From a bacterium (GTDB lineage Bacteria > Auribacterota > UBA3054): DNA of 64,000 nt. The position numbers and the translations under genes are program-made. Numbering within the stretch: position 1 is the stretch's first letter; the number at the start of each line of letters is the position of its first letter. The DNA lies in NCBI GenBank assembly GCA_017963805.1, contig JAGCTE010000006.1, forward strand, positions 5,118 through 69,117. Direction: 5' to 3'. This document shows, in pieces, positions 7,758-61,098 of the stretch. A model generated the notes under the pieces. The model was not told where the DNA came from, did no database searches, and worked only from the letters and a program-made list of their open reading frames with translations.

Positions 7758-9461
7758 TTAGCGCTGCTTGCGGGCGGCAAAGAGGCCTATGAGGGCCAGG
7801 ATGCCGAGGAAAGCGGGCTCGGGCAGCGTGCCGGACTTGATCAGCTCGACCTTGAAGTTGTCGATGTAGTAGCCGTCGGAGCCGCTGAAGGTGTAGTTGC
7901 GGAACTGCAGGAAGTTCTCGTTGTCGCCGGCGGCGCCGGGAACGTACTCGTTGTCAAAATGGTAGGTCTCGCCGTCGAATTCAGCGTAGTGCAAAACAAA
8001 GGGGCGGGATTCGTCGCTGGCAAGGCCGATGGTGAATGTGTAGGCCACGTTGAACCACTGGCCGTAGGGGGCCAGATTGGGAACGTCGACGTTCTTGAAG
8101 GGTTCGCCGCCCATCTTGATGCCGCCGGCGGTGTGGCTCATGCTGACTTCACCCATCCTGTGGGAGAGGTCGGTGCCGAAGACCAGGTACGGCGTGACGC
8201 CTTCCGGATAGTACATATCCATGGAGACGCGGACGTCATAGGTGGGATAGATAACGTCAGGCATGTTGACCGCGGTGTGGATCTGTCCGGCGCCCGTGAT
8301 CTTCAGGCACTGGTTGCCGGCGTCTTCGGGGTCGGCCGCGATCGCGTTAGCGGCGCCGGTCTCGCCCCAAGCGGGCTGAAGTTTGACATCGCCGCCCAGA
8401 GGCATTCTCTCGAAGTCCGTGGCGTAGAGCGCCCAGCCCAAGCCTTTGTTGCCGTTCTGAGCCACGACGGAATGCGTGAAGGATTTGTCTTCTTCGCCGT
8501 TGTAATAGGAATAGGTGATGGTGGCCGCGGGCATGTTTCGGACCTGTTCGGGCAGGTTGGCGGTAAGGCCGATGGACACGGGTTCACCGGGAGCGACTTC
8601 GACCTGCTTGGTGAACTCGCCGTTCATGGAGAGCCAGTTGTCATCCGAATCGATGTCAACGGTGACGGTGGCGGAAGCGCCGGTGGCGGAGATCACGGTT
8701 TCAAGGCCTTCGGCCTCACCGAGCTTCACGACGCCGGGAGCGCTGGCGGTCACGTTGGCGGTGGGAGGAACATCGACGAATTCGCATTTGAAATCATCGA
8801 TATAGATGCTGGCGCCGCCGCCCCAAAGGAACGTTCTAAAACGACGGAATTTGTCGGGAGCGGTCTGGCCGCCCATGGGGATGTTCAGATTTGAGTAGGT
8901 CACGTCGCCGAAGGTGCATTCGCGAAGGAAAGCGCCGTTGGCAACGGTGTTGAAGGTGTAGCTGAAATAGACCCACTCGTCGCGGGGCTCGGAATTGTCA
9001 AGCGTCAGCTGCGGGGAGGTCGAGCTGAAGCGAATGCCGAACTGGCCGTCTTTTTTGATCCAGTGGTTCTCGCCCAGGCCGTCGTTGCTGCCGAAGATGA
9101 TGTCGCCGGTGTATTCGCCGGAACCGTCGGCTTTCTGCGTCGGACGCTTGACCATCATGGAGACTTTGTAGTCATACTGGGAGGACTTGCCGCCCACGTT
9201 GTCAATGTCGGTGTGAGTGCCGAACAAATTGTCCTTGGCAAAGATGTGGAGGCACTTGCCGCCATTGTAGCCGCCTTCTTCGACGATGGCGTTGTTGTTT
9301 TCCGTCGCGCCGGTGTAGCAGATCGACCAGCCGTCGAGGCCGATGATGCTAGTACCCGCTTCATAACCTTCGAAATCGTTTTCGTAGATCGTGGAGGGTT
9401 CAGCCTGCGCCATAGCCGCGCAAAGCAGAAGCGCGGTGGTTAAAACTAGAGCTTTTTTCAT
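7758..9461 (-). CDS. Secreted PEP-CTERM (exosortase-sorted) surface protein, function unknown.
   Basis: Signal peptide MKKALVLTTALLLCAAMAQA. C-terminus SGTLPEPAFLGILALIGLFAARKQR is a PEP motif + TM helix + basic tail. Beta-rich G/T/S/D-rich body. Confidence 0.75.
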   Translation of the reverse strand: MKKALVLTTALLLCAAMAQAEPSTIYENDFEGYEAGTSIIGLDGWSICYTGATENNNAIVEEGGYNGGKCLHIFAKDNLFGTHTDIDNVGGKSSQYDYKVSMMVKRPTQKADGSGEYTGDIIFGSNDGLGENHWIKKDGQFGIRFSSTSPQLTLDNSEPRDEWVYFSYTFNTVANGAFLRECTFGDVTYSNLNIPMGGQTAPDKFRRFRTFLWGGGASIYIDDFKCEFVDVPPTANVTASAPGVVKLGEAEGLETVISATGASATVTVDIDSDDNWLSMNGEFTKQVEVAPGEPVSIGLTANLPEQVRNMPAATITYSYYNGEEDKSFTHSVVAQNGNKGLGWALYATDFERMPLGGDVKLQPAWGETGAANAIAADPEDAGNQCLKITGAGQIHTAVNMPDVIYPTYDVRVSMDMYYPEGVTPYLVFGTDLSHRMGEVSMSHTAGGIKMGGEPFKNVDVPNLAPYGQWFNVAYTFTIGLASDESRPFVLHYAEFDGETYHFDNEYVPGAAGDNENFLQFRNYTFSGSDGYYIDNFKVELIKSGTLPEPAFLGILALIGLFAARKQR

Positions 9462-9655: not shown

Positions 9656-9955
9656 ATGACTTATGAGATCACCTCTCCTCCTCCGGATCTGACGGTCACC
9701 GTCCAGGGCCGCCTCGACACGCTTACCTCCCCCAAACTGGAAAGCGAACTGGAGCCGAGCATCGCCCAGGCCAAGAACCTTGTTCTGGATGTTACCGGCG
9801 TGGATTACCTCTCCAGCGCCGGGCTGCGCCTGCTTCTTACCTTGCAGAAACGTTTCAAAAGGGAAGGCGGCAGCTTCAAGCTTCGCGGCATCCAGCCGGG
9901 CGTGATGGAGATACTCCGCATGACGGGCTTTTTGAAGATCCTATCCGTTGAATAA
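9656..9955 (+). CDS. STAS-domain anti-sigma-factor antagonist (SpoIIAA/RsbV-like).
   Basis: 99 aa. Conserved phosphorylatable Ser context DYLSSAGLRLLL. First gene of a 3-gene operon with a PP2C phosphatase and an anti-sigma kinase. Confidence 0.8.
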   Translation: MTYEITSPPPDLTVTVQGRLDTLTSPKLESELEPSIAQAKNLVLDVTGVDYLSSAGLRLLLTLQKRFKREGGSFKLRGIQPGVMEILRMTGFLKILSVE

Positions 9956-9964
9956 GCCTGCTTT

Positions 9965-11827
9965 ATGCGCCGATCATTTCAATTGTGGCTTTTTGTTTCC
10001 GTGGCGCTCGCTTTCGCCGCGCTCTTCTATCTGACCTATTACCTTCAGACGAAAGAGGCTTTCGGTTCCGCGGAAGCCATGATCGAACTGAGGATGGACG
10101 ACGCCAAGAAGCAGATCGCCATCAACGAGAACAACCTCAAAGCCGTGCTTGACATCTGCAACGCCTCGATGGCCAACGACGTCAAGACCGTGGCTTATAT
10201 CCTCTCGTGCGCGCCGGCCTTCGCCACCAACGCTTACAAGCTGGAAGAGCTGCGCCGCGTCATGGGCTACGACGAGGTCCACATCATCAACAGGCACGCG
10301 CTTATTGAGAACAGCGCCATCGATCCCGTCCTTGGCAACGCGGAAAACTACATCGGCTTCAATCTTAAGCTTCACGCCCAGTCCGAACCCTTCGTCCACG
10401 GCATCGGCAAGCAGGATTTCGTCCTGGTCCAGCCGCCTCTGCCCAGGGGAATGGACCGCAAGCTCTTCCAATACGGCGGCGCTTCCAGACTCGACGACGA
10501 AGGCATCGTGCAGCTTGGCATCTCCGTCAGCTTCCTGGAAAAAGCGATGGAAAACAACAGTTTGGCGACCCTTTCCCCCGGCTTGCGCATCGGCGTTGGC
10601 GGAGAGATCCTTATTGTGCGCGGCGAAAAGATCGTCGGCGCCGCCAGGGTCGACCTTGAAGGCCGCACGCTCACCTCCGTAGGATTGGATCCCGAGCTCA
10701 TATCCAAGCTCCATCAGGGCGAGGGCTCTTTTTCCGCCGAGATAGACGGCGTGGATTTCTTCGGTTTGTATGTTCAGAGCGGCGACCTTACGCTCCTTGG
10801 CGTTATGCCTACCTACGAGGTTACGAGGAAAAGGAACAGCATCGCCATCCAGCTTGTCATTTCCGCCCTGGTTTTGATGCTGGTCGTCTTCCTCTCCGTT
10901 TCGAAGCTCGTCCAGGTCATAGTTATAGACGGCATCGACCGCATCAACGCTTCCCTTGGACGCATCACGGCCGGCCACCTCGACGAGAAAGTCACGGAAA
11001 ACCGCTCCAAGGAATTTGAGGAGCTCTCCGGCGGCATCAACACGACGGTGGAAGCCCTCAAGGGCGCCATCGCCGCGGAAAAGACGAGGCTGAACAGCGA
11101 GCTGGAATTCGCCCGAGCCGTCCAGATCTCCGCGCTGCCCCAGATCCACGACGACCCGCGCTTCGAGATCTTCGCCTCCATGGAAGCCGCGAAAGAAGTC
11201 GGCGGCGACTTCTACGATTTCTTTATCGTTGACGAGTCGCACCTCGCCTTCCTTATCGCCGACGTTTCCGGCAAAGGCATCCCGGCCGCCATGTTCATGA
11301 TGAACGCCAAGGCGCAGCTGAAATCGAACATCCTGAACAACCCCCAGAAGCCGCTGGACGAAGTGATCTACGAGGTCAACAACAGCATCTGCGAAGGCAA
11401 CGACGCCTGCATGTTCGTGACCGTCTTCGTCGGCGTCCTCGACCTTAGAAGCGGGCTTATGAACTATGTCAACGCCGGCCACAACGCCCCCATCATAAGG
11501 CGCGCTAACGGCGACGCCTCCTGGCTGCCCGTGGAAAACGGCTTCGTGATAGGCGGCATGGACAGCGTCGACTACATCCAGGAGTCCGTCACCCTCTCTC
11601 CCGGCGACGGCATACTCCTTTACACCGACGGCGTCACGGAAGCCATGAACCGCCAGCTCGCCCTCTACGGCGACGACAGACTGATATCCCTCATGGACGG
11701 CCCCATCATGCGCTCCGCGCCAACCGACTGCATTCTTGGCGAACTGAAAAGCGACGTTTCGGCCTTCGCCGACGGCGCCCCTCAATCTGACGATATAACT
11801 ATGCTCTTCCTGCATTATTTGGGATAA
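9965..11827 (+). CDS. Membrane sensor PP2C-type serine phosphatase (SpoIIE/RsbU family) with an N-terminal periplasmic sensor region, TM helix and HAMP-like linker.
   Basis: The C-terminal PPM domain reads FEIFASMEAAKEVGGDFYDFF, AFLIADVSGKGIPAAMFM and LLYTDGVTEA. There are N-terminal and internal TM segments (LWLFVSVALAFAALFYLTYYL; IAIQLVISALVLMLVVFLSV). Confidence 0.8.
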   Translation: MRRSFQLWLFVSVALAFAALFYLTYYLQTKEAFGSAEAMIELRMDDAKKQIAINENNLKAVLDICNASMANDVKTVAYILSCAPAFATNAYKLEELRRVMGYDEVHIINRHALIENSAIDPVLGNAENYIGFNLKLHAQSEPFVHGIGKQDFVLVQPPLPRGMDRKLFQYGGASRLDDEGIVQLGISVSFLEKAMENNSLATLSPGLRIGVGGEILIVRGEKIVGAARVDLEGRTLTSVGLDPELISKLHQGEGSFSAEIDGVDFFGLYVQSGDLTLLGVMPTYEVTRKRNSIAIQLVISALVLMLVVFLSVSKLVQVIVIDGIDRINASLGRITAGHLDEKVTENRSKEFEELSGGINTTVEALKGAIAAEKTRLNSELEFARAVQISALPQIHDDPRFEIFASMEAAKEVGGDFYDFFIVDESHLAFLIADVSGKGIPAAMFMMNAKAQLKSNILNNPQKPLDEVIYEVNNSICEGNDACMFVTVFVGVLDLRSGLMNYVNAGHNAPIIRRANGDASWLPVENGFVIGGMDSVDYIQESVTLSPGDGILLYTDGVTEAMNRQLALYGDDRLISLMDGPIMRSAPTDCILGELKSDVSAFADGAPQSDDITMLFLHYLG

Positions 11828-11842
11828 ACAAGGAAACGACCT

Positions 11843-12253
11843 ATGAACGTAGCTGTAACTCTGCAATTCTCGGCTGAAACTAAGAACCTCCCCAACGTTC
11901 TGGAACAACTGGACACCCAGCTTCTCGCCGCGGGCTGCCCCGAAGACGCCAGGATGCAGCTGGCCGTAGCCGTGGAGGAGATCTTCGTCAACATCGCCAA
12001 CTACGCCTACGAGGGCAAGCTCGGCTCCGCCACCATAAACATCAAGGCGGACGCCCACAAAGCGACCGTTTCCTTCGCTGACAGCGGTTTCCCCTACGAT
12101 CCCCTGAAGAAGGAAGACCCCAATATCGAGCAGGCCGCGGAGGACCGCCCGATAGGAGGGCTCGGCATCTTCCTTGTCAAGGAAATGTGCGACGAGGTCC
12201 ATTACGAGCGCCGCGGGGACATGAACCTTTTGACCATCGTCAAAAAGTACTGA
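11843..12253 (+). CDS. Anti-sigma regulatory factor / serine-protein kinase (RsbW/SpoIIAB-like, HATPase_c).
   Basis: 136 aa. GHKL ATPase motifs (EEIFVNIANYAYE; DRPIGGLGIFLVKEMCDEV). It is operonic with the STAS and PP2C genes. Confidence 0.75.
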   Translation: MNVAVTLQFSAETKNLPNVLEQLDTQLLAAGCPEDARMQLAVAVEEIFVNIANYAYEGKLGSATINIKADAHKATVSFADSGFPYDPLKKEDPNIEQAAEDRPIGGLGIFLVKEMCDEVHYERRGDMNLLTIVKKY

Positions 12254-12256
12254 CCT

Positions 12257-13231
12257 TCATTCCACTTCGCGAAATTCCCCTTTCCCGTGGGAGGCTACCC
12301 TTTTTAAAAAGGCGCAGCCGCGTTCCGCTTTTTCCCTTCTCTTTACGCTTCCGTCCCTCATGGGCCTGTAGGCGATAGCGTTTATCTGCGTCGCTTTCTC
12401 CCTTCTGCTTTCGTCAATCAGAGCCATTATCCTTCTTTCGTGGACGATTTCGTCCTCGCCCTGCAGGTACGGCGGGTCGTCGCTTATCAATACGACCGCG
12501 TCGGGCTTAAGGGAGAGCGCGAACTCCAGGGCTTTTATGGGCGTGCTGCCGCTGGTGTCGGGGTCGTTGCCGCGGTTGACTTTCATCTCCTTGGCGAGCC
12601 AGGAAGAGAGTTCCCTTTTGGCGCTCTTGGTGGCGAAACAAAGGTTAGTTCGGAAGGGGAACTTCCCGTCCGTAAAGAGCACGACGTTGAAGAGCGTGTC
12701 GGGATGAAAAAGCTCCACGGTCTTCTCGGCCTCCTTCCTCACCGCCTCGAAAACGCCCTTCTGGACGATCGAGGAAGAGGAGTCCACCAGGATAACGATC
12801 GATCTAGCGGCGATCCGTTGTCCCAGGAACTCTATCTCGCCCCAGCCGTCGCCGCCCTTGGGCGCCTTACCGAGCCCCGCGTCCCCTAGGGAAAAGCTCA
12901 GGTTGTCGCTGAGGGAAAGCCCTTCGCTTTCCCTTTTTACGTTGGGCTTGACCATCTCCGGTTCCGGCAGCGCAAGACTGCTCGTGTCGCACTTGGCCGA
13001 GACGCGCATGTTTTTGGCCATGCTCTGCCCGTAGGATGCCGCCTTCTTGCACTGCAGCCTGTGCTTCAGTTCCCGGGCTTTCAGTTTCGGCCCGGCCGCG
13101 CTCGCCGTGAAGAGCGGTTTCGGCGGCTTTACAGCCCGATAGACTACTATCCCTCCCGCCACGAGAAAGAGGGCAATATGGATGCCTACGCTCACAAAAA
13201 GGCTGCCGTAGCGCGAAAAGTCAATCTTCAT
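12257..13231 (-). CDS. TonB-like N-terminal membrane anchor fused to a von Willebrand factor A (vWA) domain. Last gene of the ExbB-ExbD-ExbD cluster.
   Basis: Single N-terminal TM (LFVSVGIHIALFLVAGGIVVY) and a Pro/Lys-rich linker, in the position where TonB normally sits. The C-terminal domain has a vWA MIDAS-like start (IVILVDSSSSIVQKG ... LFTDG ... VLISDDPPY). Confidence 0.6.
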   Translation of the reverse strand: MKIDFSRYGSLFVSVGIHIALFLVAGGIVVYRAVKPPKPLFTASAAGPKLKARELKHRLQCKKAASYGQSMAKNMRVSAKCDTSSLALPEPEMVKPNVKRESEGLSLSDNLSFSLGDAGLGKAPKGGDGWGEIEFLGQRIAARSIVILVDSSSSIVQKGVFEAVRKEAEKTVELFHPDTLFNVVLFTDGKFPFRTNLCFATKSAKRELSSWLAKEMKVNRGNDPDTSGSTPIKALEFALSLKPDAVVLISDDPPYLQGEDEIVHERRIMALIDESRREKATQINAIAYRPMRDGSVKRREKAERGCAFLKRVASHGKGEFREVE

Positions 13232-13664
13232 CTTCCCCGCAGCTGAAAGTTACGTTGGTTAACCCGGCCTTGTGGCAGCAGTCCAAGACCAGCGCGATCC
13301 GTTCGTGGAGCGCTTCGTCATCGGCGGAGACCGAGACCAGGGCCGGGATCTTAGCGCCCCGGGAAGCCGCTTGGAAGCGCAGCAAGGTCTCTGTGAGCTC
13401 GGCGAGGTCCCGGCTTTTGGCCCTAACGAAGGTCTGCCCGTTCAGAACGACCGCTCCTTCTGGGTCGATCTCTATGACCTGCTCGTCCGGCATGACGACC
13501 GCTTCCGTCTCACGGCCTTCCCCAGGCAGGGAAAAACCCAAGTCCCCTTCCGTCTTGTTCAAAGAGCAGGCGGACATAAAATAGATCAAAAGCAGAAAGG
13601 TGCAGTCTATCATGGAGGAAATGGGAAAGCTGATCTTGCCCGTTTCTTTCTTTTCTCTTCTCAT
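13221..13664 (-). CDS. exbD: ExbD/TolR biopolymer transport protein.
   Basis: 147 aa. N-terminal TM with the conserved ISSMIDCTFLLLIYFM block. Confidence 0.8.
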   Translation of the reverse strand: MRREKKETGKISFPISSMIDCTFLLLIYFMSACSLNKTEGDLGFSLPGEGRETEAVVMPDEQVIEIDPEGAVVLNGQTFVRAKSRDLAELTETLLRFQAASRGAKIPALVSVSADDEALHERIALVLDCCHKAGLTNVTFSCGEDED

Positions 13665-14074
13665 CAGCTCTCCTCGTAGACGGAAAAGATTATCTTCGCG
13701 AGCCCCGCTTCGCCGCAGAGCTTCACGAATTTTTTCGTCACCGCGCTCTTGCTTCTTCTGTCAATCCTTAAGAGCACCGTGCCCTTGGGCGTCGTTTTCG
13801 CGAAAGTTTCCAATTCCTTCTTCGCTTCCTCAACGTCGACCTTCCTCCCATTGATAAGACAGCTCTCGTCACTAAGGATCGTCAGCGCGCAGAAGGCTTC
13901 CTCGCCTTCCCTCTTCCCGAAATTCTTGACTTCCGGCAGCTCCAGCTCTTCCGGCGTATTTAGATTCTGCATGGTGGCGCTGCACATGAAGAAGATGAGA
14001 AGCAAAAAGACCATGTCGATCATGGGCGCCATGTCCAGCTCACACTCCGCTTTCTTTTTCCTTTGCCGCAGCAC
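13664..14074 (-). CDS. exbD: ExbD/TolR biopolymer transport protein (second copy).
   Basis: 136 aa. MAPMIDMVFLLLIFFM block. Confidence 0.8.
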   Translation of the reverse strand: MLRQRKKKAECELDMAPMIDMVFLLLIFFMCSATMQNLNTPEELELPEVKNFGKREGEEAFCALTILSDESCLINGRKVDVEEAKKELETFAKTTPKGTVLLRIDRRSKSAVTKKFVKLCGEAGLAKIIFSVYEES

Positions 14075-14843
14075 TTCTCCTCCTTTTCGGTCTCTCTTTT
14101 TCCTCCTCTTCCTCCAGGCCCAGCCTTATCCTAACTTTCTCCCTGGCCAGCCCGGATCCCGCGTAAACGTCGATTAGTTCCGTCGCCTTGGAAAGCAGCT
14201 CCCTTTCCCTGATGTCGAAACGGCTCTTTAAAACGAAGAAGAAGACCATGGCCGGGATGCCGACGACTAACCCCGCGGCGGTAGTAAGGAGCGCCTCGCC
14301 GATGTCGCCCGCCAGCAGTTCCGGCTTGCCCATCCCGCCCAGGCCTATCTTTGAAAATGCTTTGATCATGCCGGAGACCGTTCCCAGAAGCCCCAGCATC
14401 GGGGAGAGCGCCGCGATAGTCGAGAGCAGATTGAACCAGAACTGCATCACGATGCTTTTCCCCTCCCACTTTTCGATTATCGCCTCTTCCGCCTGCTGCC
14501 GCTCCTCTTTGTCGAGAGGATACTTCAGTTTTTCGACTCCCGGCGTCATAACGACAGCCAAAACGCTTTTGCCGATCGCCAAGAGATCCAGCGCCGCGTG
14601 TATGTCGCGCCTGTAGAGCGCCTCTTCCAAGCGCTCCGGAAGGCCTTTGGGAATAAATTTTCCCTTGCGCGTCTCGAAGAAACTGTAGACGGTAAGCCAG
14701 ACCACGACGCAGGAGCAGAGCGCCAGAGGGTACATGAGAGGCCCTCCCGTCTTGAAAAGCCCCAAGGCGGTGGTGCTAAGCGATTCCTCTTCCCCGAAAA
14801 CGGTCATCGCGGCGAAAGCAAGTATGGTAAGCAAAGATCTCAC
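14040..14843 (-). CDS. exbB: MotA/TolQ/ExbB proton-channel protein.
   Basis: 267 aa with three TM helices. Conserved LGLLGTVSGMIKAF and ALLTTAAGLVVGIPA blocks. Confidence 0.85.
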   Translation of the reverse strand: MRSLLTILAFAAMTVFGEEESLSTTALGLFKTGGPLMYPLALCSCVVVWLTVYSFFETRKGKFIPKGLPERLEEALYRRDIHAALDLLAIGKSVLAVVMTPGVEKLKYPLDKEERQQAEEAIIEKWEGKSIVMQFWFNLLSTIAALSPMLGLLGTVSGMIKAFSKIGLGGMGKPELLAGDIGEALLTTAAGLVVGIPAMVFFFVLKSRFDIRERELLSKATELIDVYAGSGLAREKVRIRLGLEEEEEKERPKRRRSAAAKEKESGV

Positions 14844-15679
14844 GGCAAAAGCTCCTCGGTGTAATTGTTGATCAAATGTGTTTTGGTGTAGCGCTCCCCG
14901 ATCTCCAGCCAGCGCAGGATGAGCTTCCTGTGGCGGCGGAATTCGGTTTCCTTGTATTCGTTGGTCAATACGCCGGCTAAGCGGACCGCCGTTTCCATGT
15001 CGCCTGCTTTTAAGGCGCAGACGCTTCCCAAGAAAAGGCCGTCCGCCCCGACTTTCCTTTCCAGGGCGAAGAAAAGGTGCGGCGGCAGAAGGTAAAAGAG
15101 CGCGTTCCTATAATCTTCCTCCCCGTATAGGATCCGGCCCATGTAGTAATGCCAGAGCGCCGCCCCTTCGTCGGAGCCTTTTTCCCACGCATACCTTTCC
15201 AAAGCCTCCCTTGCCTTTTTGAGATCCCCGGTCTTCCAATAGCAGATCCCCAGATACAGTCCCGCCATTTCTTCCTGGCTCTTCAAAAAATAGCGCTTGG
15301 CTTCCTGATAGCGAGAGCAGTTGAAAAGCAGTTTCCCGTAGATATAATACGGCGCCTCCGCTCCGCCCGGCCAGCTTTCGGCCCAGGAATAAAGCTCCCA
15401 CAATTCATGCCCCCTTTCCAGCGCTCGTTTTCTTTTCGGTCCTTTGCGGTAAACCGTTTCCGAAAGCTCACGAAGCTCTACCGGATCGCTTAGCCTCAGT
15501 TTCGTCACCTGCTCCTTTTTCGCCCGGCATTTCATAAGGGATCCGTCCTTGGCGTAGCGCTCGTAAACGATCGCGTTCTCCTCGTGGGTCAGCAGTCTTC
15601 CGCTGAAACTCTGCCCGGACTGCAGCGTCAGCCTTATCGGCAGCGCAACGGACAGCAATATCCAATAGGGCTTTCTCAT
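14840..15679 (-). CDS. TPR-like repeat protein immediately upstream of exbB.
   Basis: Helical TPR-like repeats (YYMGRILYGEEDYRNALFYL; YLGICYWKTGDLKKAREALERY). The start was chosen at MRKPYWILLSVALP (signal-like) so it does not overlap the upstream TPR gene. Confidence 0.5.
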   Translation of the reverse strand: MRKPYWILLSVALPIRLTLQSGQSFSGRLLTHEENAIVYERYAKDGSLMKCRAKKEQVTKLRLSDPVELRELSETVYRKGPKRKRALERGHELWELYSWAESWPGGAEAPYYIYGKLLFNCSRYQEAKRYFLKSQEEMAGLYLGICYWKTGDLKKAREALERYAWEKGSDEGAALWHYYMGRILYGEEDYRNALFYLLPPHLFFALERKVGADGLFLGSVCALKAGDMETAVRLAGVLTNEYKETEFRRHRKLILRWLEIGERYTKTHLINNYTEELLP

Positions 15680-18165
15680 AAGTATCCTTTCTCCTTGGCT
15701 TCCTTTTCCGTCGCGGCCCAATCATTCGTCCTTCCCATAGCCTTGAAACACGCCATGCTTTTTTCATAGGCCTCCTTCGCCGCTTCTTTTTCCCCCTGGT
15801 ACATGACGTAAACGCGCTGGTAATAGGAGAGCGCCTCGCCGTATTTCCCCCCTTCCCGGTAACAGTCCCCCGCCAGCAGGAGCAATGAGGTTTTCTTTGC
15901 CGGCGCCAGGCCTTTCTGAGCCAAAAGCGCGAGAAACTTCCCAAGCGCCTCTTCCCTTTTTCCCTGCCTGAAAAGCGATAACGCCGAGATCTCGTCTTTG
16001 CGCAGGAGATCTTCCAGGCTCTGGAAGGAATCCTCGCCCTCCGCGAGGTATGTTTCCGCCTCGTCGTAGCGCTCCAAATTAACGCTCGCTTCGGCCAAAA
16101 AGAGCCAACCCTCGGAAGCCGCCGGGTCTTTCGGGAATTCCTCCGTCAAATATTTCGCCAGCTCTTTTGTCTCTTTCCCGTTCTTTTCTTCCGAAAGGAC
16201 GAGCCTGCGCCTCAAAGCCTCCGGCCCCAGGGAACGAAACTTCAGTTTGACGAGCATTGGATCGTCTTTTAAAAACAGCGAAATTTTGGCAAAGGAGCCG
16301 GTTTTCCCTTTTTCAAGATCCAATCGCGCTTCCTTCCTTAGCTCTTCCTTATACTCCGACAAGTCGGAAGAAAGCTTTGCCCCGACTTCCAGCGCGCCAA
16401 CCGCCTCCCGTTCGACAAGGTCGTCCTTTGTCTTCAGCCAAAGTTTTTTCGCCGCGGTTCTTCCTTTTTCCGTCTCTCCCAAGATCCGGCAAGCCTCGAG
16501 GTAATTTTGCAGCGCTTCGCCCCTGAAGCCCGGCGTTCCTTCCGACAGCAGGTAAGGCTCAAGCAATTCCATAACAAGCCTTGGCCTTCCCAGGACCTTG
16601 TGGATCTCAGCCGCTTTCAAAAGCGCGTAGCACTCGAAATTGTCAGGCCGCCCGCCTTCCTTAGGCAGATTCTCCTTATAGGCCGCGAGCGCTTCCGCAA
16701 GCTCCCCCAGAGCGCCCAGGGCGTCGCCTAAGGTGTTGCTTACCTCTTTTAGGTTATCGTACTTGGGGTAGCGCTCCAAAACCGCTTTAAGGGCCTTCTT
16801 GGCCCCCGAATAGTCTTCCCTGCGGTAGAGTATGGCCGCCAAACGGAACTCCACGTCCGCCATATGAAGGTTTTCGGGGTATTTTTGCTTGAAAGCCAAA
16901 AAGGTCGCCTGCGCCTCCTCGTCCATCCCCTGGTAATACTCCAGCATGCCCTTCCAATAAACGGCCTCACCTGACAGCTTGTGCTCTTCCCCGAACTCCG
17001 CCAGCCACTTCTCCGTTTCCAACAGAGCCGCCTTCTCCTCCCCCATGAAACCCAGGGCGCAGTCGGCGTAAAGTTTCGCCTCGCCAAGCATTGAGGATTC
17101 TCTGTATTTTTCCGCGTAGGCCAAAAAGCGCTCCCGCGCCCGTAAATATTCCCCCGAGCGCATGGCGCCCTGGGCCGGCAGCAGCGCCAGCGCTTCGATC
17201 TCGTCGTCTTTCAGCTTTTCCCTCAGAAGCTCCTCCGCGCCTCTGTCCAGACGATCCAGGTATCCGCCCTGCAGACAGGCGTAGCAGCTGAGCTTTCTCA
17301 ACCCGATCCTAACGAAGTCGTTGGTCGTTATCCTTATCCCTTCCCCGCAGTAGACCGCGCATTCTGGATAATACGAGGCGTCGTAGCAGGCCCTGGCCAG
17401 TCTAGCAAGCCTCGCCTCTCCGCAGGATCTTTTATTGGCCAGGCGGTAAGCGCTAAGCGCGCCCGCGAAATTATTGCTCATGTACATGACGTCCCCCAAG
17501 CGCAGCGCCAGATAATTCCTCAGCGTTTCCGCTTCTTCCTTTTTGTTGAGCGCCAAGCCTTCCCGCAGATAAGAAAGCGCCGGATCCGCCTTCCCTGTCT
17601 CCAACAAACACCAGGCCAGATGCAGACTAGAGAGCGCCCGGAATTTCTTTTCGTCCTTCACCTCTTCCCAATAGGGCAGGGCCTCCTCATAGCGCCCCGC
17701 CTTCGTCAGAGCCAGGGCCAAATTAGCTTTCACTTCCATTGCCTCGCCGACTCCCTCAGACAAAAGCGCGCGGAAAGTGTCCGCCGCGGACATAAATCGC
17801 CCGAGCTCCATTTCCGCCATGCCGAATCCGAAGCGCGCCTTCCCCGCTTCCGAAAAATCGGGATAAGCCTTCCCGACTTTATCGAAAAGCTCCGCCGCAA
17901 AATCGAACCGCCTGATCCTATACGCCGCCACGCCCCCAAAATAAGTCATCCTCGGGAAATAATTCGACATCGCCTCCTCTTCCCCGTAGCGCTCCAAAAA
18001 CGTACGCGCCGCCAAAAAGGCGTTGGTCGCCTCTCCTCTTTTCAGCGAAGCGTAAGCAAAGCGAAACAGCCCCGCCGAATCGAGATCGTCAAGCTCTCCC
18101 CCAAACGTTAGGCTAAGCCACAGGACACTTATTCCGCAAGCTATGATAATTTTCTGACCGCGCAT
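15676..18165 (-). CDS. Large secreted tetratricopeptide-repeat (TPR) protein.
   Basis: 829 aa. Signal peptide, then dozens of Ax(2)Yx(8)Ax(3)F-type TPR units throughout. Confidence 0.75.
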   Translation of the reverse strand: MRGQKIIIACGISVLWLSLTFGGELDDLDSAGLFRFAYASLKRGEATNAFLAARTFLERYGEEEAMSNYFPRMTYFGGVAAYRIRRFDFAAELFDKVGKAYPDFSEAGKARFGFGMAEMELGRFMSAADTFRALLSEGVGEAMEVKANLALALTKAGRYEEALPYWEEVKDEKKFRALSSLHLAWCLLETGKADPALSYLREGLALNKKEEAETLRNYLALRLGDVMYMSNNFAGALSAYRLANKRSCGEARLARLARACYDASYYPECAVYCGEGIRITTNDFVRIGLRKLSCYACLQGGYLDRLDRGAEELLREKLKDDEIEALALLPAQGAMRSGEYLRARERFLAYAEKYRESSMLGEAKLYADCALGFMGEEKAALLETEKWLAEFGEEHKLSGEAVYWKGMLEYYQGMDEEAQATFLAFKQKYPENLHMADVEFRLAAILYRREDYSGAKKALKAVLERYPKYDNLKEVSNTLGDALGALGELAEALAAYKENLPKEGGRPDNFECYALLKAAEIHKVLGRPRLVMELLEPYLLSEGTPGFRGEALQNYLEACRILGETEKGRTAAKKLWLKTKDDLVEREAVGALEVGAKLSSDLSEYKEELRKEARLDLEKGKTGSFAKISLFLKDDPMLVKLKFRSLGPEALRRRLVLSEEKNGKETKELAKYLTEEFPKDPAASEGWLFLAEASVNLERYDEAETYLAEGEDSFQSLEDLLRKDEISALSLFRQGKREEALGKFLALLAQKGLAPAKKTSLLLLAGDCYREGGKYGEALSYYQRVYVMYQGEKEAAKEAYEKSMACFKAMGRTNDWAATEKEAKEKGYL

Positions 18166-18216
18166 ATATTGCTCCCAATATATAAGCGGTCGCGAAAACG
18201 AAAAAATTGCGCAAAA

Positions 18217-21375
<3,159 letters not shown>

Positions 21376-21725: not shown

Positions 21726-23627
21726 CTACTCTGTTTGTCGGCGTTGAAAAACGTTGTTGTTAAGAACGCGATTCGTAGCGATATTCAAAGGTATTTCAAA
21801 ATTCTTCGGCCATTTGTGAGTTGCCGCGTCAAACATCTCTTCTCTGAATTCAGATCCGTCTTTTTCCATAGCCTGCGCAAGCACAGAATTAAAGTCCTGT
21901 TCATCAAGCGGATGTTCCTGACAATAACGCCATAGAGTTTCCTCACACTGCCAACTTATCCCGGAATTTTTCAGATCCTCGTCCGCTTTTTCGCCGCCGT
22001 AGCGCAAAGCTTGCTGAACGTTTTTGACATAATTGGTCTTGTCGCGAACAATCTGTGCGTAAAGAGCCGCGTTTTTGTGTCGCTTCCATTCCATCATGGA
22101 AAAATCTATGCTCGGAACATCAACCATAGAAAGTGTGAGAGCGCTGTAACTCTCACCGCGCTCACGTAAAAGTTCTGCCGCCATTATGTAAGCATAGGAA
22201 GTATATGTTAAGCATGTCGGATACTTATGTACGCTAAGCAAGTGAGACAAAGCCGCTGCCGAACGGTCTTCCTCAGTAAATCCAAAATCAAAGCGATGAA
22301 TTTCATGGAGCATTCTCCCGAGGAAAAAGTGCGCAGCCCCTTTGGTAAAACCATCTGAATTTTCCGGCAAAAGGAAAAAATTCATGAGGGTATAGGCCTT
22401 TTCATAATCTCCCTGCCAAAAAACGCTTTCCGCTTGCCAATACAGACGGCCTGCCGCTCCCGAGATCGCAAGTATACCTTTATATTTTTCACAATCTTCC
22501 AATCTATCTGAAGCATCAGCGATTCGCGCCTCAAACTCATCTATTTCGACAAAACGCTCAATATAATCGGACAAAGTCAGCGCGTTTGTCTCGCGCTGAC
22601 GCTGTTCCGGACTCCATAAATAAGCCGATGTTTCAATTATATTTTTCCAAGGTATAGCCTCGCTTCCTTTAAGAGAGAGATTTTTAGACCATTCCTCTCC
22701 TTCTTTTTTCATTTCTAAAAAAGCGTCCGGGATTTGCCTTCTTTCGTCCAGGAAATTTTCAGCGCTCTGTATAAAACGCATGGCATAAATCAAAACAGGC
22801 ATGCGGTTTTTATTATTTTGCTGTCGCAGCGCATAATTTTTCACATTATCTATGGCATCTAGAATCTTAATTTTTTCGCTGGAATTAGTTACGCAAAGGT
22901 AGGCGTCAAGGCAGGTTTTCGCTAAATTTGGAAAAGCGTTAACATTAACTTCCATCCACTTTTCCAAAAGTTGTAATTTTTCGCCTTCCGAAAAACCGCC
23001 TTTCAAAACAAGATTGAGCGTCGTCTCAAAATCAAGAGATTTGTCAGCACTCCTTAAAGATAGAATAAATTCACGCACTTCCTCGGTAACTTCAGGATGT
23101 TTTTCTCTAAATGAAAGCAGATACTCAATCTGGGGTTTATCAAGATTATCATACATGATAACCTCTTCATAAAGACGAAGGGCGTTTTTGATATCGTTTT
23201 GCTTGACGTAATATCTCCGCAAAGCTTGCTGGGCGTACTTGTATGAGAACCAGCGACGGCCGGCGGCTTTTTCACGGTATTTTTCCAAAACTGCCATCAG
23301 CAAAGCCGGAGCATTTCTTTGCGTTTCTGGGTCTTTCAAACTATAGACCGCGGCCAAACTTTCCAACACAAGATCTAAAGGTTCTCCGTTGGAAAGGAAA
23401 ACGCCCCTGCTCTCTTCGGCTTTAGCGGCAGCGTTAGCGAGTTTGACGGCTGTCCGCCATTGCTTTTCCTTGGCCGCATTTTCTATTTTCAAGCAACGTT
23501 CTGTCAGCCAGACGCTTCCTGTTATGTGAGGGCTGACAAGCCAGACACCCCTCTGAATATCTATGTTACCCAGGGAAAAAGAAGCCCATATGAAACTTAA
23601 GAAAAAGCAAAAAGTGTTCTTCATCAC
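21726..23627 (-). CDS. Family-D secreted helical (TPR-like) protein, copy D1, in the tRNA-flanked island.
   Basis: 633 aa with a signal peptide. The C-terminal ~250 aa are clearly homologous to the 62301..63560 product (YEKAYTLMNFFLLPENSDGFTKGAAHFFLG vs CKKAYRCMNYFLLPENKDDFSVGAAHYYLG; KYPTCLTYTSYAY vs QYKTCLTYIAYSY; TNRVLNN in both). The N-terminus is homologous to the 63557.. partial product. Confidence 0.6.
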   Translation of the reverse strand: MMKNTFCFFLSFIWASFSLGNIDIQRGVWLVSPHITGSVWLTERCLKIENAAKEKQWRTAVKLANAAAKAEESRGVFLSNGEPLDLVLESLAAVYSLKDPETQRNAPALLMAVLEKYREKAAGRRWFSYKYAQQALRRYYVKQNDIKNALRLYEEVIMYDNLDKPQIEYLLSFREKHPEVTEEVREFILSLRSADKSLDFETTLNLVLKGGFSEGEKLQLLEKWMEVNVNAFPNLAKTCLDAYLCVTNSSEKIKILDAIDNVKNYALRQQNNKNRMPVLIYAMRFIQSAENFLDERRQIPDAFLEMKKEGEEWSKNLSLKGSEAIPWKNIIETSAYLWSPEQRQRETNALTLSDYIERFVEIDEFEARIADASDRLEDCEKYKGILAISGAAGRLYWQAESVFWQGDYEKAYTLMNFFLLPENSDGFTKGAAHFFLGRMLHEIHRFDFGFTEEDRSAAALSHLLSVHKYPTCLTYTSYAYIMAAELLRERGESYSALTLSMVDVPSIDFSMMEWKRHKNAALYAQIVRDKTNYVKNVQQALRYGGEKADEDLKNSGISWQCEETLWRYCQEHPLDEQDFNSVLAQAMEKDGSEFREEMFDAATHKWPKNFEIPLNIATNRVLNNNVFQRRQTE

Positions 23628-24508
23628 AACATTGCCAGCGCCTCCACACGGCGCAATTCGCCAATAACAGAAACGATTAAGGGGAGCCTTTTCTTATCAT
23701 CTTTTTGCTCTTGCAGCCATTGTCTCAGAGCCCGGCAATAATCTCTTATAAATTCTGGTTTTTTAACGTCAAGTACGCTAGCCGCTCCAACTATAAAACA
23801 GTTCATTTCGCTTTCCCCGGCACAAGAATTATTTTTTAGCCAAGAGATTATTTTTTCTTGTTTCTTCTCCGCTGATATATCAGAGCGCAGAAAATCTCCT
23901 ATCATGAACAGCGCGTCTTTTTCTCCGGAAAAATCATCTAATAATTCCCCCAACCAGGTTACGCTATACGGCCTTTCCGCCGCTGCGTATAAGATGGTCA
24001 TCAAAGCGATTTTAGACGAAGAGTCATAAGCGAGCCATCTTCTGGCTGTCAGATCATGCGACCGCACGTCTCCCAAAGTCCAGTAATACGACATCAAAAC
24101 TCGAAAAAAGTCGACGTAACGAGCAGAAAACTTTTCTTCCGACAGTTCTTTAAATTCTAGCAAGGCTTTTTCCGTCAGTTTGGGCAGTTCCGGATCGTCG
24201 CGCCGAGCTTCGCTCAAGCATTCTATTTGGGTCAACCGTAAAGTAAGCGCCAGATCTTCTCCGCAGGCCAATTTTATACCAGCCACGGCTGAATCTAGCT
24301 TCTCACATTCAACGGACGCTCGCAAAAAATCCTTGCTTCGCATCAGCGCTTCTATGCGTAGTAAGCCTTCCTTTATAAGGTCGTCCTCTCCTTCATAATG
24401 CCGGCTGACATAACGCACGCCTTCTGTCTTTTCGCATCCGAAAACAGATCCCGCACAAAATGCCAAACAACAGCAAAATAAGAAGAGGCAAAGCTTACCC
24501 GGATTCAT
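23624..24508 (-). CDS. Hypothetical secreted protein (island cargo).
   Basis: ORF 23624..24577. The probable start is the internal MNPGKLCLFLFCCCLAFCAGSVFG signal peptide. No recognisable domain. Confidence 0.4.
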   Translation of the reverse strand: MNPGKLCLFLFCCCLAFCAGSVFGCEKTEGVRYVSRHYEGEDDLIKEGLLRIEALMRSKDFLRASVECEKLDSAVAGIKLACGEDLALTLRLTQIECLSEARRDDPELPKLTEKALLEFKELSEEKFSARYVDFFRVLMSYYWTLGDVRSHDLTARRWLAYDSSSKIALMTILYAAAERPYSVTWLGELLDDFSGEKDALFMIGDFLRSDISAEKKQEKIISWLKNNSCAGESEMNCFIVGAASVLDVKKPEFIRDYCRALRQWLQEQKDDKKRLPLIVSVIGELRRVEALAML

Positions 24509-25797
24509 TTTCTTCTGTGCAGGCAAAGCAGGCCAAGAATCACCAATCCAAGCATGCCCGGCTCTGGCAGTTCCCAAGCCAGCGTAGGCAGAGAAACGCC
24601 TTCTTCGATATACCAGACATGCTCAAAATCCCAGTTTTCAAAGGTTACTTCGCTTTTTAATTCGTCATGAGTTTTAGCAATAGCAAACGAATCATCCAAA
24701 CCGAATGTGGTGGTATCGAAATAGCAATTTGTAACAGTCAAGCTCTTTACTGATTTGAAAGCTAAAAATCCGCCGGTGTGTTTAAAATCTCCTTTTATAT
24801 TTCCTGTAGCATAGCATCTAGAAATGTTAACGCTCACATCATTTATGTAGTTTGTGGTTGAAAAATTTGGGGAAAATGATAGAGAGCCAATAAATCCTCC
24901 CGCAAAAGTCTCACGCCCTGGAAAAGAAGAATCCATTTCCAAATTGAACGCCGCATAGCAGTCCTCAATAGAGAACTCTGCATTGCCATCAGCAAGGAAA
25001 AAGCCAATTAACCCGCCAGTTTCACCAAAACCGGAAGAATATTCAGTATCATTCTCGGCATAGCAACGCGATATTCTCAAATGCGAATTTGTTTCCATCC
25101 TTATCTCACCTATCAACCCCCCTATAGAAGATTGTCCATTCACATGAACTCTGGCCTTGCATTGAGAAATAGAAATTGAATTGTTATATTGGGCATAGAC
25201 CTGGCCAATTAATCCGCCTATTCCTTCAACGGCCACTTCTTTAGGCATTTTTGATTCTATGGTTCCGCTAACAGAACAATTTTCAATAATGGAATTTCCC
25301 TGAGCTTTTCCAACCAAAATACCGGAGCCAAGCCGCCCACAATACTGGACTTCAGCGTCTTCAATCACTATGTTTTTTAAATGAAAATTCCCACATCTAA
25401 AAATACCAACATTTTCTACATATTCCATCGGCATTCTGATGTATGGGTTTTTGATGGCAAAACCTTGCCCATTATAATTTAAAATAAAAGGTTTTATATT
25501 TAAAATTCCAGAATAAGCAGTCATTATGACAGGAAATCCGCCTGCTTCACTCCACTCTTCGCCTTTGGTTTCCGAAGCCAAGATATCCTGCGTCTGCTTG
25601 CAATAAACGGTGGTTCCTTCCTGAAAGGTAGAAAGATTTTCGCTTAGCCAAACAAAGTTTTCCAAGCAAGCAATCTCATACGGACTATCTTCCGTCCCGT
25701 CTCCTTGCGGCTTCACAGGCGTCCTGTCGGCAAAAACTGCAACCACGCACAGAAAACTAAGAATTAAAAATATTTTTTTCATTGTAAACCTCCTCAT
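24505..25797 (-). CDS. Family-A surface protein, copy A1. It has GLUG-like (GG[LF]IG) repeats, likely a beta-helix, with a PEP-CTERM anchor.
   Basis: Signal peptide. N-terminal PxGDGTEDSPYEI..LENFVWL motif. Repeated GGLIG/GGFIG and I..CY motifs. Conserved C-terminal TFENWDFEHVWYIEEG block. Tail LPEPGMLGLVILGLLCLHRRK is a PEP-CTERM. Paralog of 49789..50976 and 53444..54655. Confidence 0.7.
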   Translation of the reverse strand: MRRFTMKKIFLILSFLCVVAVFADRTPVKPQGDGTEDSPYEIACLENFVWLSENLSTFQEGTTVYCKQTQDILASETKGEEWSEAGGFPVIMTAYSGILNIKPFILNYNGQGFAIKNPYIRMPMEYVENVGIFRCGNFHLKNIVIEDAEVQYCGRLGSGILVGKAQGNSIIENCSVSGTIESKMPKEVAVEGIGGLIGQVYAQYNNSISISQCKARVHVNGQSSIGGLIGEIRMETNSHLRISRCYAENDTEYSSGFGETGGLIGFFLADGNAEFSIEDCYAAFNLEMDSSFPGRETFAGGFIGSLSFSPNFSTTNYINDVSVNISRCYATGNIKGDFKHTGGFLAFKSVKSLTVTNCYFDTTTFGLDDSFAIAKTHDELKSEVTFENWDFEHVWYIEEGVSLPTLAWELPEPGMLGLVILGLLCLHRRK

Positions 25798-27170
25798 TCG
25801 GGATCTGGGGTTGGATCCGGGGCCAAGACAAAACGGCTCAGAATCGGACTGTTAATTTGTTGCGCTCTATATAGAATCTTCGGTCGCCCGAAGAAAAATG
25901 TATTGACCATTGACCAACTGGGATAACAGCCCCATCGTTGATCAGGAGGCGCTTTACGCGCCGCCAACGCGCTGGCGTATTCTATTATGTCGGCGCCGAA
26001 GTCAGACACATTGTTATTGAGTAGAAAATTTTCTGACCAAATCGGACTTTGATAAAAAGCAATGTCATCAATTCCGAAATTCATCGAATGATTTTTATTC
26101 CCAAATGTATCTTGACTGATACAAAGTAATGATATGCCTTCATAAATATAGTTTGTTGGAGAGTAAATGTCCGGACACAAAGGTTCGCAAGGCGTCACCA
26201 CGAAAGGTGTTCCATATGCCTCCCAAGTCGGATCCACCGCCCAGGCAACAGAATTAAAATTGGTTGCCACATCTTCTCTAAATATTCCCCATTCGCAACC
26301 ATCAAAATTGCATCCCAAGTTGGCAAATATAGTCCGTTCAGTTAGAGTAGGTCGCGAGGCTGCTAAGACCGCATAGGCATGGTATTGTAAATCAAGTAGT
26401 TCTCTTCCGTTAAAACGAACTTTCAAAGATCCTGTCGGGCTTGAATAATATAAATCTCCATGTCGTTCCATGAACATGTGGTATCCATCAGCGTATTCCT
26501 CCAACCACGTTTGCAAATCGCAATTTTGAATAATAAAATGCTGAGGATAATAATTATTTTTCCGGGTATCACCCCACAGTTTATAACCGCCGGAAGTTAT
26601 TATTTCCAATTTTCCTGGACCAATATACAAATCAGAATCTCTGACCCAAATTTTAACGCTGAGAAGATCATTGTCGTTCCTGTTCATTTGAACATCATCA
26701 TGATCTGGAGTCCCGTTCTTGTTGTCATCATCAAAATTCCAGTGAATAGGAACAGTAACTTGATCGCCAGTGTGCATCCCGTCTATTCCTCTCCTTTGCG
26801 AACTTAAAACAATATCCCTGTAATAAATATATTTTTCTTTTTCCAAGTGACAGATACGTCCTGTAGGATAAATATAATCAACACGAGCATAAGCAACAAG
26901 AACTACAGGCTCGCCTATATAACTTATGGTCAACGGGTTATACACGCTTGTACTCATAAGCTCGTTTCCCCACAAATCTCTTATTAAAAATACATTGGAA
27001 GTCACATCTCCCGAACAGTTAAAACTAACGGTAAACGTGTTGTTAGTTGTTCCTACCGCGACGCGAAACCTACCAAAAATGTCAATAGAATCCGGCACGT
27101 TTGCTAATGCCGCTTTGGCAAAACAAAAAGTGAACAATACAATTGAATGCAATATTATGTTTCTTTTCAT
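25794..27170 (-). CDS. Family-B secreted protein, copy B1 (HWNFDDDN / CEW motif family, function unknown).
   Basis: Signal peptide MKRNIILHSIVLFTFCFAKAALA. Shares VPIHWN(I/F)DDD(D/N)K and DGCEW motifs with the 50996..52432 and 59056..61059 products. Confidence 0.6.
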   Translation of the reverse strand: MKRNIILHSIVLFTFCFAKAALANVPDSIDIFGRFRVAVGTTNNTFTVSFNCSGDVTSNVFLIRDLWGNELMSTSVYNPLTISYIGEPVVLVAYARVDYIYPTGRICHLEKEKYIYYRDIVLSSQRRGIDGMHTGDQVTVPIHWNFDDDNKNGTPDHDDVQMNRNDNDLLSVKIWVRDSDLYIGPGKLEIITSGGYKLWGDTRKNNYYPQHFIIQNCDLQTWLEEYADGYHMFMERHGDLYYSSPTGSLKVRFNGRELLDLQYHAYAVLAASRPTLTERTIFANLGCNFDGCEWGIFREDVATNFNSVAWAVDPTWEAYGTPFVVTPCEPLCPDIYSPTNYIYEGISLLCISQDTFGNKNHSMNFGIDDIAFYQSPIWSENFLLNNNVSDFGADIIEYASALAARKAPPDQRWGCYPSWSMVNTFFFGRPKILYRAQQINSPILSRFVLAPDPTPDPE

Positions 27171-27171
27171 T

Positions 27172-49722: not shown

Positions 49723-49788
49723 TTCTACGAGTTGTTTTTTATAAAATATTCTAGAAACGGTTTTCATTTTATTATCGAGGGACATGTT

Positions 49789-50976: not shown

Positions 50977-50995
50977 AAGGTCAACAGGAAATCAC

Positions 50996-52432: not shown

Positions 52433-52467
52433 ACCCGGAAGGTAATTCTTTGGAGGAGGAATAAAAT

Positions 52468-53427: not shown

Positions 53428-53443
53428 TTTTAAAGGAGCGTTT

Positions 53444-61059: not shown

Positions 61060-61098
61060 AACACAATTAAAATATTCTTCACATTAAGGAAAATTCCT

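Follow-up and report, generated by a model that had tools for sequence, protein, structure and literature searches.

A conserved six-gene locus of the candidate phylum UBP3 combines an ExbB/ExbD motor with a TonB-like anchored protein bearing a von Willebrand A head

[quoted passage not shown] The locus is real and conserved. Compared by described features, not by sequence, it is a member of a class of vWA force transducers that has been published independently (PMC12204202). The reading we prefer, with a probability of roughly 0.6, is that the gene products form a Ton/Tol-type 5:2 motor driven by the proton-motive force (PMF), in which X serves as periplasmic force transducer instead of TonB or TolA, with envelope housekeeping as the best guess for the output. 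The host belongs to the candidate phylum UBP3 (unclassified at NCBI), which is known from ruminant-gut metagenome-assembled genomes (MAGs). UBP3 is not an established member of the Planctomycetes-Verrucomicrobia-Chlamydiae (PVC) group, in whose genomes the preliminary description of the stretch proposed to profile the arrangement.

All six open reading frames (ORFs) lie on the minus strand between window positions 12257 and 18165 and encode, in the order of the operon, a large tetratricopeptide repeat (TPR) protein (gene 1), a TPR-like protein (gene 2), an ExbB/TolQ-family subunit, two ExbD paralogues (ExbD1 and ExbD2) and X (Table 1). The successive junction overlaps are 4 nt (ATGA), 4 nt (GTGA), 35 nt, 1 nt and 11 nt, and such overlap at every junction is typical of an operon with translational coupling. 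These coordinates, which match those of the preliminary description, and the overlaps bear out the six co-directional, overlapping genes proposed there. The gene set given at that time, TPR(829 aa)-TPR-like-ExbB-ExbD-ExbD-X, was likewise recovered, both by Pfam and by identical metagenome contigs in which independent gene calling yielded the same six genes. A promoter and terminator scan of positions 11800-18600 gave matches no better than chance.

An AlphaFold2 (AF2) model of X was built from nine family members. It predicted an alpha/beta domain for residues 141-324 with a predicted local distance difference test score (pLDDT) of ~80. A Foldseek search of the PDB with this model returned 148 matches at E ≤ 1e-3, and the best 50 of the 148 were all vWA/integrin-I-type domains or chains with one; the matches included ITIH1, CMG2, calcium-channel alpha2delta and a Bat-related protein of Bacteroides fragilis (4jdu, rank 14). 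The Pfam VWA match of X was weak (E = 0.005, under the cutoff), and an NCBI protein 98% identical to X bears the name 'VWA domain-containing protein'. With TonB_C no Pfam match of X was obtained at E ≤ 0.1. The metal ion-dependent adhesion site (MIDAS) is complete (D150-x-S152-x-S154, S229/T230, D251). Its residues are invariant among close relatives, and the site is retained as D-x-[ST]-x-[ST], G-[ST] and D in 17 diverse relatives with identities down to 21%. Because the MIDAS residues are conserved in the family, the head of X very likely functions as a metal-dependent binding domain. A diverged TonB_C or TolA-III domain was ruled out by the vWA fold and the MIDAS motif; the proposal that a vWA domain replaces the TonB C-terminal domain in X thus agreed with the structure prediction and with the Pfam result. 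With such a head, partner capture cannot be TonB-box beta-strand pairing. As adhesion modules, vWA and integrin-I domains bear load and depend on the MIDAS.

The TonB-like single N-terminal transmembrane (TM) helix ascribed to X in the preliminary description was found at residues 9-31, where the Kyte-Doolittle value (2.43) and an AF2 helix spanning residues 9-34 agree, and an S-x3-H motif gives it a more pronounced TonB-like character than that description could recognise. This motif, S14-x3-H18 (SVGIH), corresponds to the Ser/His core of SHLS, the motor-docking motif of TonB and TolA; X thereby mirrors both the E. coli TonB sequence SVCIH (S16-x3-H20) and that of TolA, SAVLH. An exhaustive profile search gave 1636 cluster representatives of the X family at E ≤ 1e-3. 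TM statistics were derived from the best 149 of these 1636, of which 141 have a clear TM helix. A TM His is present in 114 of the 141, and in 99 of the 114 (87%) Ser or Thr is located exactly at His-4, compared with 5.9% Ser/Thr elsewhere in the TM helix. A TM-core Asp is absent from X and from 141/141 TM-bearing relatives examined. When aligned on the His, the family register reads S(-4) 81%, A(+7) 63%, G(+8) 69%, V(+11) 64% and F(+23) 69% (the latter from 108 representatives); after F(+23) the profile continues with a Pro-rich patch at His+26 to +33 and then an (E)PRKLEH-like motif. X matches the register residues at A25, G26, V29, F41, K49, R53, L55 and H57, and the last five of these are invariant in the alignment of its own clade. 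Relatives P0015-P0019 retain the Ser without the His (e.g. SAILIAGAF), whereas more distant relatives of X have the His.

The membrane-proximal part of the X linker contains the motifs PPKPLF, in which F41 (13109-13111) corresponds to His+23, and K49-x3-R53-x-L55-x-H57. Judged by sequence position, this conserved element is a putative counterpart of the 'motor box', in that it appears to sit where TonB and TolA carry theirs. The linker comprises 109 residues (32-140), and its pLDDT of <50 over residues 35-140 suggests that it is probably disordered. Its composition (K 11.9%, P 7.3%) fits the Pro/Lys-rich linker of the preliminary description only in part: the Pro-rich stretch stands out better from the profile of the family and is only modest in X itself. 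In one relative of X (P0035), the TM-linker-vWA module is fused to a cytoplasmic N-terminal extension with a Ser/Thr protein kinase domain (Pfam), and two others (P0029, P0030) also have a cytoplasmic N-terminal extension, in theirs with, by eye, a SAM-like domain. These fusions are hints that part of the wider X family is linked to signalling and not to a motor.

The ExbB subunit matched PF01618 (MotA_ExbB) at E = 1.6e-24 and has an N-terminal signal-like extension. It keeps the LGLLGT and GEAL..T channel motifs; in a longer form, as read from the sequence, the motifs LGLLGTVSGM and IGEALLTTAAGL are common to the Verrucomicrobial orthologues. Among the equivalog models compared, ExbB scored best with TolQ (TIGR02796, 63.6 with a cutoff of 221) and reached 49 with the ExbB equivalog (cutoff 206), and the two ExbD proteins scored 36.1 and 25.7 with the TolR equivalog TIGR02801 (cutoff 127.3). 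Scores this far under the TolQ, TolR, ExbB and ExbD equivalog cutoffs indicate that the motor is neither canonical Ton nor canonical Tol. ExbD1 matched PF02472 at E = 4.6e-23 and has its TM Asp within PMIDMVFLLLIFFM; ExbD2 matched the same family at E = 3e-15, has its TM Asp within SMIDCTFLLLIYFM and contains a conserved PDEQ motif. ExbD1 clusters with the first ExbD of other loci and not with ExbD2, and in between-locus alignments the mean score was 322 for ExbD pairs of the same type versus 110 for cross-type pairs. ExbD1 and ExbD2 are distinct types, each orthologous across clades, which implies an ancient heterodimer.

The gene 1 product matched many Pfam TPR families with E values down to 1e-17 and starts with a signal-like sequence (MRGQKIIIACGISVLWLSLTFG); its orthologues in other loci have 912-999 aa. 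It narrowly passed TIGR02795, the model of YbgF-type TPRs (91.6 bits, cutoff 90.1, summed over three stretches), and scored 44 with the CpoB model NF008068 (cutoff 383), at about three times the length of CpoB. Gene 1 thus seems to resemble CpoB, BamD and PorW in its repeats and to be the orthologue of none of them; of the comparison with CpoB/YbgF drawn in the preliminary description, the likeness in TPRs stands and orthology is not supported. Read from an alternative upstream TTG at 15721, gene 2 would encode 293 aa. The protein matched Pfam TPR_2 with 28.1 bits (cutoff 27). Its AF2 model, obtained from an alignment of close relatives only, has a mean pLDDT of 85.5 and contains a signal peptide; residues 13-63 form a beta domain with five strands, and residues 67-257 a TPR-like helical repeat. 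The best Foldseek matches of this model in the PDB were TPR proteins, including the periplasmic flagellar-motor scaffold PflB of Campylobacter. A word-indexed homologue search with gene 2 retrieved only close relatives (≥66% identity). The counterparts in distant loci share 16-21% identity and the same domain layout, and their orthology rests on position and on this alignment with shared architecture.

Closely matching loci were found in ruminant-gut MAGs (99% identity to MAG UBA3054; yak, goat, sheep and buffalo), one of them labelled 'bacterium UBP3_UBA3054'. The synteny of more distant loci was studied with nine individually examined relatives and a genome-collection scan, and ten loci had readable upstream sequence (L015, L017, L018, L019, L020, L022, L023, L024, L025 and L026), several of them labelled Verrucomicrobia, Chthoniobacterales or Terrimicrobiaceae. 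Verrucomicrobial genomes with the operon include GCA_026398275, GCA_964445975, GCA_049315725 and GCA_018970255. The order TPR/gene 2/ExbB/ExbD/ExbD/X is kept in 10/10 of these, at X identities of ~25-45%, and the flanking genes differ among the ten. An order kept amid unrelated flanks points to an autonomous, anciently conserved six-gene module; the preliminary description had made its case depend on such conservation. Loci of the clade with 40-45% identity have an additional small ORF of 117-130 aa, matching no family, between gene 1 and gene 2; neither the window locus nor the Verrucomicrobial loci have it. In L017, a PD-(D/E)XK nuclease gene is inserted before exbB. The hosts of the operon span rumen, freshwater and soil MAGs. 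In the Verrucomicrobial loci L018, L019, L022, L024 and L025, divergent genes for LuxE/LuxC-type acyl-protein synthetase/reductase and infA were observed upstream of the large TPR gene; this block is lineage-specific synteny.

The vWA transducers of TolA/TonB topology were described in silico in a study of the origin and evolution of such proteins (Mol Biol Evol 2025, 'Origin and Evolution of Bacterial Periplasmic Force Transducers', PMC12204202), in which a Tichowtungia aerotolerans family has the matching architecture and synteny. In the AlphaFold3 (AF3) models of that study, the TM helix of the transducer touches the motor by means of a conserved His at the site used by TonB and TolA. The locus of the window shares with this class a TM helix with the SHLS-type His (of the four positions, only S and H in X), a domain II of low confidence with ~100 residues (109 in the X linker) and a C-terminal vWA fold, which in X has an intact MIDAS. 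It differs in that the phyla listed there do not include UBP3, that a single transducer gene is present where the supplement of the paper gives two in Tichowtungia, and that the conserved unit includes, besides the large TPR gene, a TPR-like gene coding for a beta domain, where one TPR gene is mentioned. A further family treated in the same work, TPH-vWA/TolQ-only, also couples a vWA head to a MotA/TolQ/ExbB-type pentamer; in it, a vWA protein with an Asp-bearing trans-pore helix replaces ExbD, and an exbD gene is missing. The window locus, in contrast, has two exbD genes, and neither X nor its 141 relatives have a TM Asp. Since the locus has every feature of the TolA/TonB-topology class that was testable here, the hypothesis of the preliminary description, a PMF-driven envelope system with a vWA effector and TPR partners, is supported and already published; the vWA fold and the conserved gene order both speak for it.

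From the gene set, folds, motifs and synteny observed, and by analogy with Ton and Tol, we infer the following mode of action. An ExbB pentamer would surround an ExbD1-ExbD2 heterodimer, and the TM helix of X would dock to the outside of the ExbB ring via S14-x3-H18. The membrane-proximal segment of X (PPKPLF, KxxxRxLxH) may engage the periplasmic domains of the ExbD proteins in the manner of the TonB/TolA 'motor box', and the flexible linker of ~110 residues would cross the periplasm. The vWA head is proposed to grip an acidic residue of its partner through the intact MIDAS metal site, so that proton flux through the motor would pull on the vWA-bound partner. The two secreted TPR proteins would be obligatory periplasmic partners that either form scaffolds around the motor or, as adaptor or ligand, connect X with the outer-membrane side.

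As output, envelope housekeeping is the best guess, i.e. tethering or organisation of the outer membrane in place of TolA-Pal. We lean to it because the flanks are unrelated in the ten distant loci and the habitats of the hosts are very different, and because the vWA family was identified in a species without discernible TolA or TonB (PMC12204202). Several points weigh against the motor and transducer assignment or its output. Only two of the four SHLS positions, S and H, are retained, position +7 being mostly Ala and +11 Val/Ile. P0015-P0019, the nearest non-UBP3 relatives of X, have no TM His. In the AF2 model of the X monomer, the putative motor-box region forms no beta strand. A search of the X-family profile against all PDB sequences gave no match at E ≤ 1, so that the link of X to the TonB/TolA anchors rests on motifs. 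According to the published study, a deletion phenotype has not been reported for these transducers (PMC12204202). Finally, the operon encodes no outer-membrane partner, which makes the output a guess.

The main rival to a housekeeping output is energised import across the outer membrane, in which X as a TonB substitute would energise an outer-membrane transporter or 'selfish' glycan uptake into the periplasm, a role proposed for periplasmic complexes linked to ExbBD in Verrucomicrobia (Akkermansia MUL1), and the TPR proteins would scaffold cargo or enzymes; we consider it unlikely, if less so than the other alternatives. A motor of the ExbB/ExbD type would suit such a function, and in the UBP3 clade a beta-galactosidase gene of glycoside hydrolase family 2 (GH2) ends 51 nt upstream of the operon on the same strand. 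This neighbour is, however, confined to the UBP3 clade, and the flanks vary in every distant locus. The operon and the window ORFs scanned yielded no gene for a TonB-dependent transporter and no SusCD-like gene. The import reading further draws on MUL1 of Akkermansia muciniphila, an ExbB/ExbD-associated cluster with periplasmic accessory proteins from a related lineage and the only one of its kind for which a phenotype (mucin use, gut colonisation) has been reported. There, the genes for mucin transport mul1A and mul1B (Amuc_0544, Amuc_0543) lie beside Amuc_0546 and Amuc_0548, annotated as ExbD and ExbB, and mul-dependent periplasmic glycan accumulation was reported (PMC13174399). The annotated order of MUL1 (Amuc_0543-0548) differs, with ExbB, hypothetical, ExbD, hypothetical, Mul1A and Mul1B, and the Mul1B model NF052542 matched gene 1 only (E = 0.04), with no match in the gene 2 products, the flanking ORFs or the Verrucomicrobial orthologues. 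On the different order and the absence of Mul1B matches beyond gene 1, we rejected Akkermansia MUL1 as the same system. A machine for surface adhesion or gliding, in which the vWA head or its pulled partner attaches to a substrate as in Myxococcus Agl-Glt with the vWA adhesin CglB, is improbable. It was raised as a possibility in PMC12204202, vWA adhesins occur in many systems and vWA pilins and adhesins are among the Foldseek matches of X. Yet the inner-membrane anchor of X and a linker of only ~110 residues imply that the vWA domain remains in the periplasm, neither outer-membrane nor track components of Glt type occur in or near the operon, and the lifestyles of the rumen, freshwater and soil hosts are very different.

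Ton and Tol are the two textbook routes by which inner-membrane energy reaches the Gram-negative outer membrane. With TonB-ExbB-ExbD, the locus shares an ExbB/ExbD-family motor and a transducer made of an N-terminal TM S-x3-H helix, a flexible linker and a globular head; it differs in its vWA/MIDAS head, in two ExbDs instead of one, in two presumably obligatory TPR proteins and in that no TonB-dependent transporter is linked to the window operon. With TolQRA-TolB-Pal-CpoB, it shares the combination of motor, anchored transducer and TPR protein in one operon as well as detectable YbgF-type repeats, and an envelope-spanning housekeeping role like that of Tol-Pal is plausible. It differs in that the 829-aa TPR protein is apparently not a CpoB orthologue and that TolA domain III is missing. 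That the locus is nonetheless a diverged canonical Tol-Pal or Ton system, with X as TolA or TonB and the TPR protein as CpoB, is the least credible of the alternatives. It could appeal to the TIGR02795 score of gene 1 and to TolQ as the best equivalog of ExbB, but a vWA head with MIDAS in place of TolA-III or TonB_C already contradicts it. Moreover, the motor subunits remain far under the TolQ/TolR/ExbB/ExbD equivalog cutoffs, both the NF008068 score (44 versus 383) and the length of gene 1 speak against CpoB, and no tolB, pal (OmpA/Pal) or tolA match was obtained among the window ORFs scanned (64-kb window). It is very improbable, too, that the adjacency is incidental and X a Bat-like/MoxR-type or generic vWA protein independent of the ExbBD motor. 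For this speak the aerotolerance-related membrane vWA protein of B. fragilis at Foldseek rank 14 (4jdu), a Planctomycetota vWA protein weakly related to X (P0221, E = 5e-8) whose gene is solitary, and the Pfam VWA match under the cutoff. The Bat operon (BatA-E) and MoxR-vWA systems indeed combine a membrane-anchored vWA protein with TPR proteins; to our knowledge, Bat proteins have no link to ExbB/ExbD, and we know of no S-x3-H anchor in them. Against an incidental adjacency stand the 11-nt overlap of the X and ExbD2 genes, the synteny in 10/10 distant loci with unrelated flanks and the conserved TM S-x3-H register. Neither a MoxR nor a DUF58 gene turned up in the operon or in those ORFs of the window that were scanned; the comparison with Bat made in the preliminary description holds at the level of the fold (4jdu) and fails for the MoxR/DUF58 partner. 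An anti-phage defence system was rejected because PADLOC defence components (e.g. Zorya-type MotAB) gave generic TPR matches only (E = 3.6e-4 and 6.6e-3).

Other features of the window were recorded alongside the operon. The GH2 gene (18217-21351, minus strand) encodes a LacZ-type beta-galactosidase (NF052611, 735 bits with a cutoff of 999), and its co-transcription with the operon is possible, in the UBP3 clade only. Convergent with X and separated from it by 3 nt between the stop codons lies a partner-switching module (9656-12253, plus strand). Its products are an anti-anti-sigma-like STAS protein, a phosphatase of the SpoIIE/PP2C type whose N-terminal part is a membrane/sensor region, and a HATPase_c_2 kinase; conservation of the module covers the UBP3 clade and does not extend to the distant loci. 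A 567-aa protein without family match (7758-9461, minus strand) combines a signal peptide with a PEP-CTERM-like sorting tail at its C-terminus (LPEPAFLGILALIGLFAARKQR). Given the presence of dnaA (39151-40518, plus strand) and dnaN (40911-42005, plus strand), the window probably covers the region of the chromosomal replication origin. Three islands of low guanine-plus-cytosine (GC) content (21726-28140, minus strand; 49732-54655 and 59056-63560, plus strand; GC 0.38-0.43, background ~0.56) carry paralogous sets of unannotated ORFs with 26-44% identity. The paralogues are 24505-25797, 53444-54655 and 49732-50976, the first two with a GLUG motif; 25794-27170 and 50996-52432; 27628-28140, 52468-53427 and 61099-62304; and the C-terminal part of 21726-23627 with 62301-63560. 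The islands look like a multi-copy cassette that is horizontally acquired or fast-evolving.

Table 1. Coordinates of the six-gene locus, of the parts of X and of the extra small ORF in related loci (window positions unless a locus is named)
Feature	Position	Strand	Evidence
Gene 1, TPR protein, 829 aa	15676-18165	-	Pfam TPR families; first gene in 10/10 syntenic loci
Gene 2, TPR-like protein, 279 aa	14840-15679	-	ATG start; Pfam TPR_2; AF2 model
ExbB/TolQ-family proton-channel subunit, 267 aa	14040-14843	-	PF01618
ExbD paralogue 1, 136 aa	13664-14074	-	PF02472
ExbD paralogue 2, 147 aa	13221-13664	-	PF02472
X, 324 aa, candidate vWA force transducer (TM helix, linker, vWA domain)	12257-13231	-	AF2, Foldseek, motifs
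X TM helix, residues 9-31 (GSLFVSVGIHIALFLVAGGIVVY)	13139-13207	-	S14-x3-H18 at 13178-13192; translation checked
X linker, residues 32-140	12812-13138	-	pLDDT < 50 over residues 35-140
X vWA domain, residues 141-324	12260-12811	-	Foldseek PDB matches
X MIDAS motifs	DSSSS 12770-12784; TSGST 12542-12556; DD 12476-12481	-	Coordinates checked
Extra small ORF after the large TPR gene	L015 3393-3764; L017 5439-5831; L026 2948-3301		

The concept of a vWA force transducer is already in print, and the locus adds breadth and sharper testable residues to it. To the published class (PMC12204202) it contributes a UBP3 member, a second TPR protein that is conserved and has its beta domain at the N-terminus, a MIDAS that is intact across the family and two ExbD types that are orthologous across clades. 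The elements that can now be tested are S14 and H18 of the anchor, F41 and K49/R53/L55/H57 of the membrane-proximal segment, D150, S152, S154 and D251 of the head, the two ExbD types and the two TPR partners. As a tentative proposal, for which we see a rather modest chance, the module might be a general replacement of TolA/TonB in UBP3, Verrucomicrobia and related lineages, i.e. a third PMF transducer with a metal-dependent, load-bearing bond to an outer-membrane or TPR partner, its output being either outer-membrane tethering or the TonB-independent, SusCD-free 'selfish' glycan import carried out by polysaccharide degraders of PVC type. If true, this would constitute a third transducer class, in which the partner is captured by MIDAS-metal coordination instead of beta-strand pairing, and it would point to an undiscovered energised envelope process in Verrucomicrobia-like bacteria, including polysaccharide degraders of the gut and rumen.

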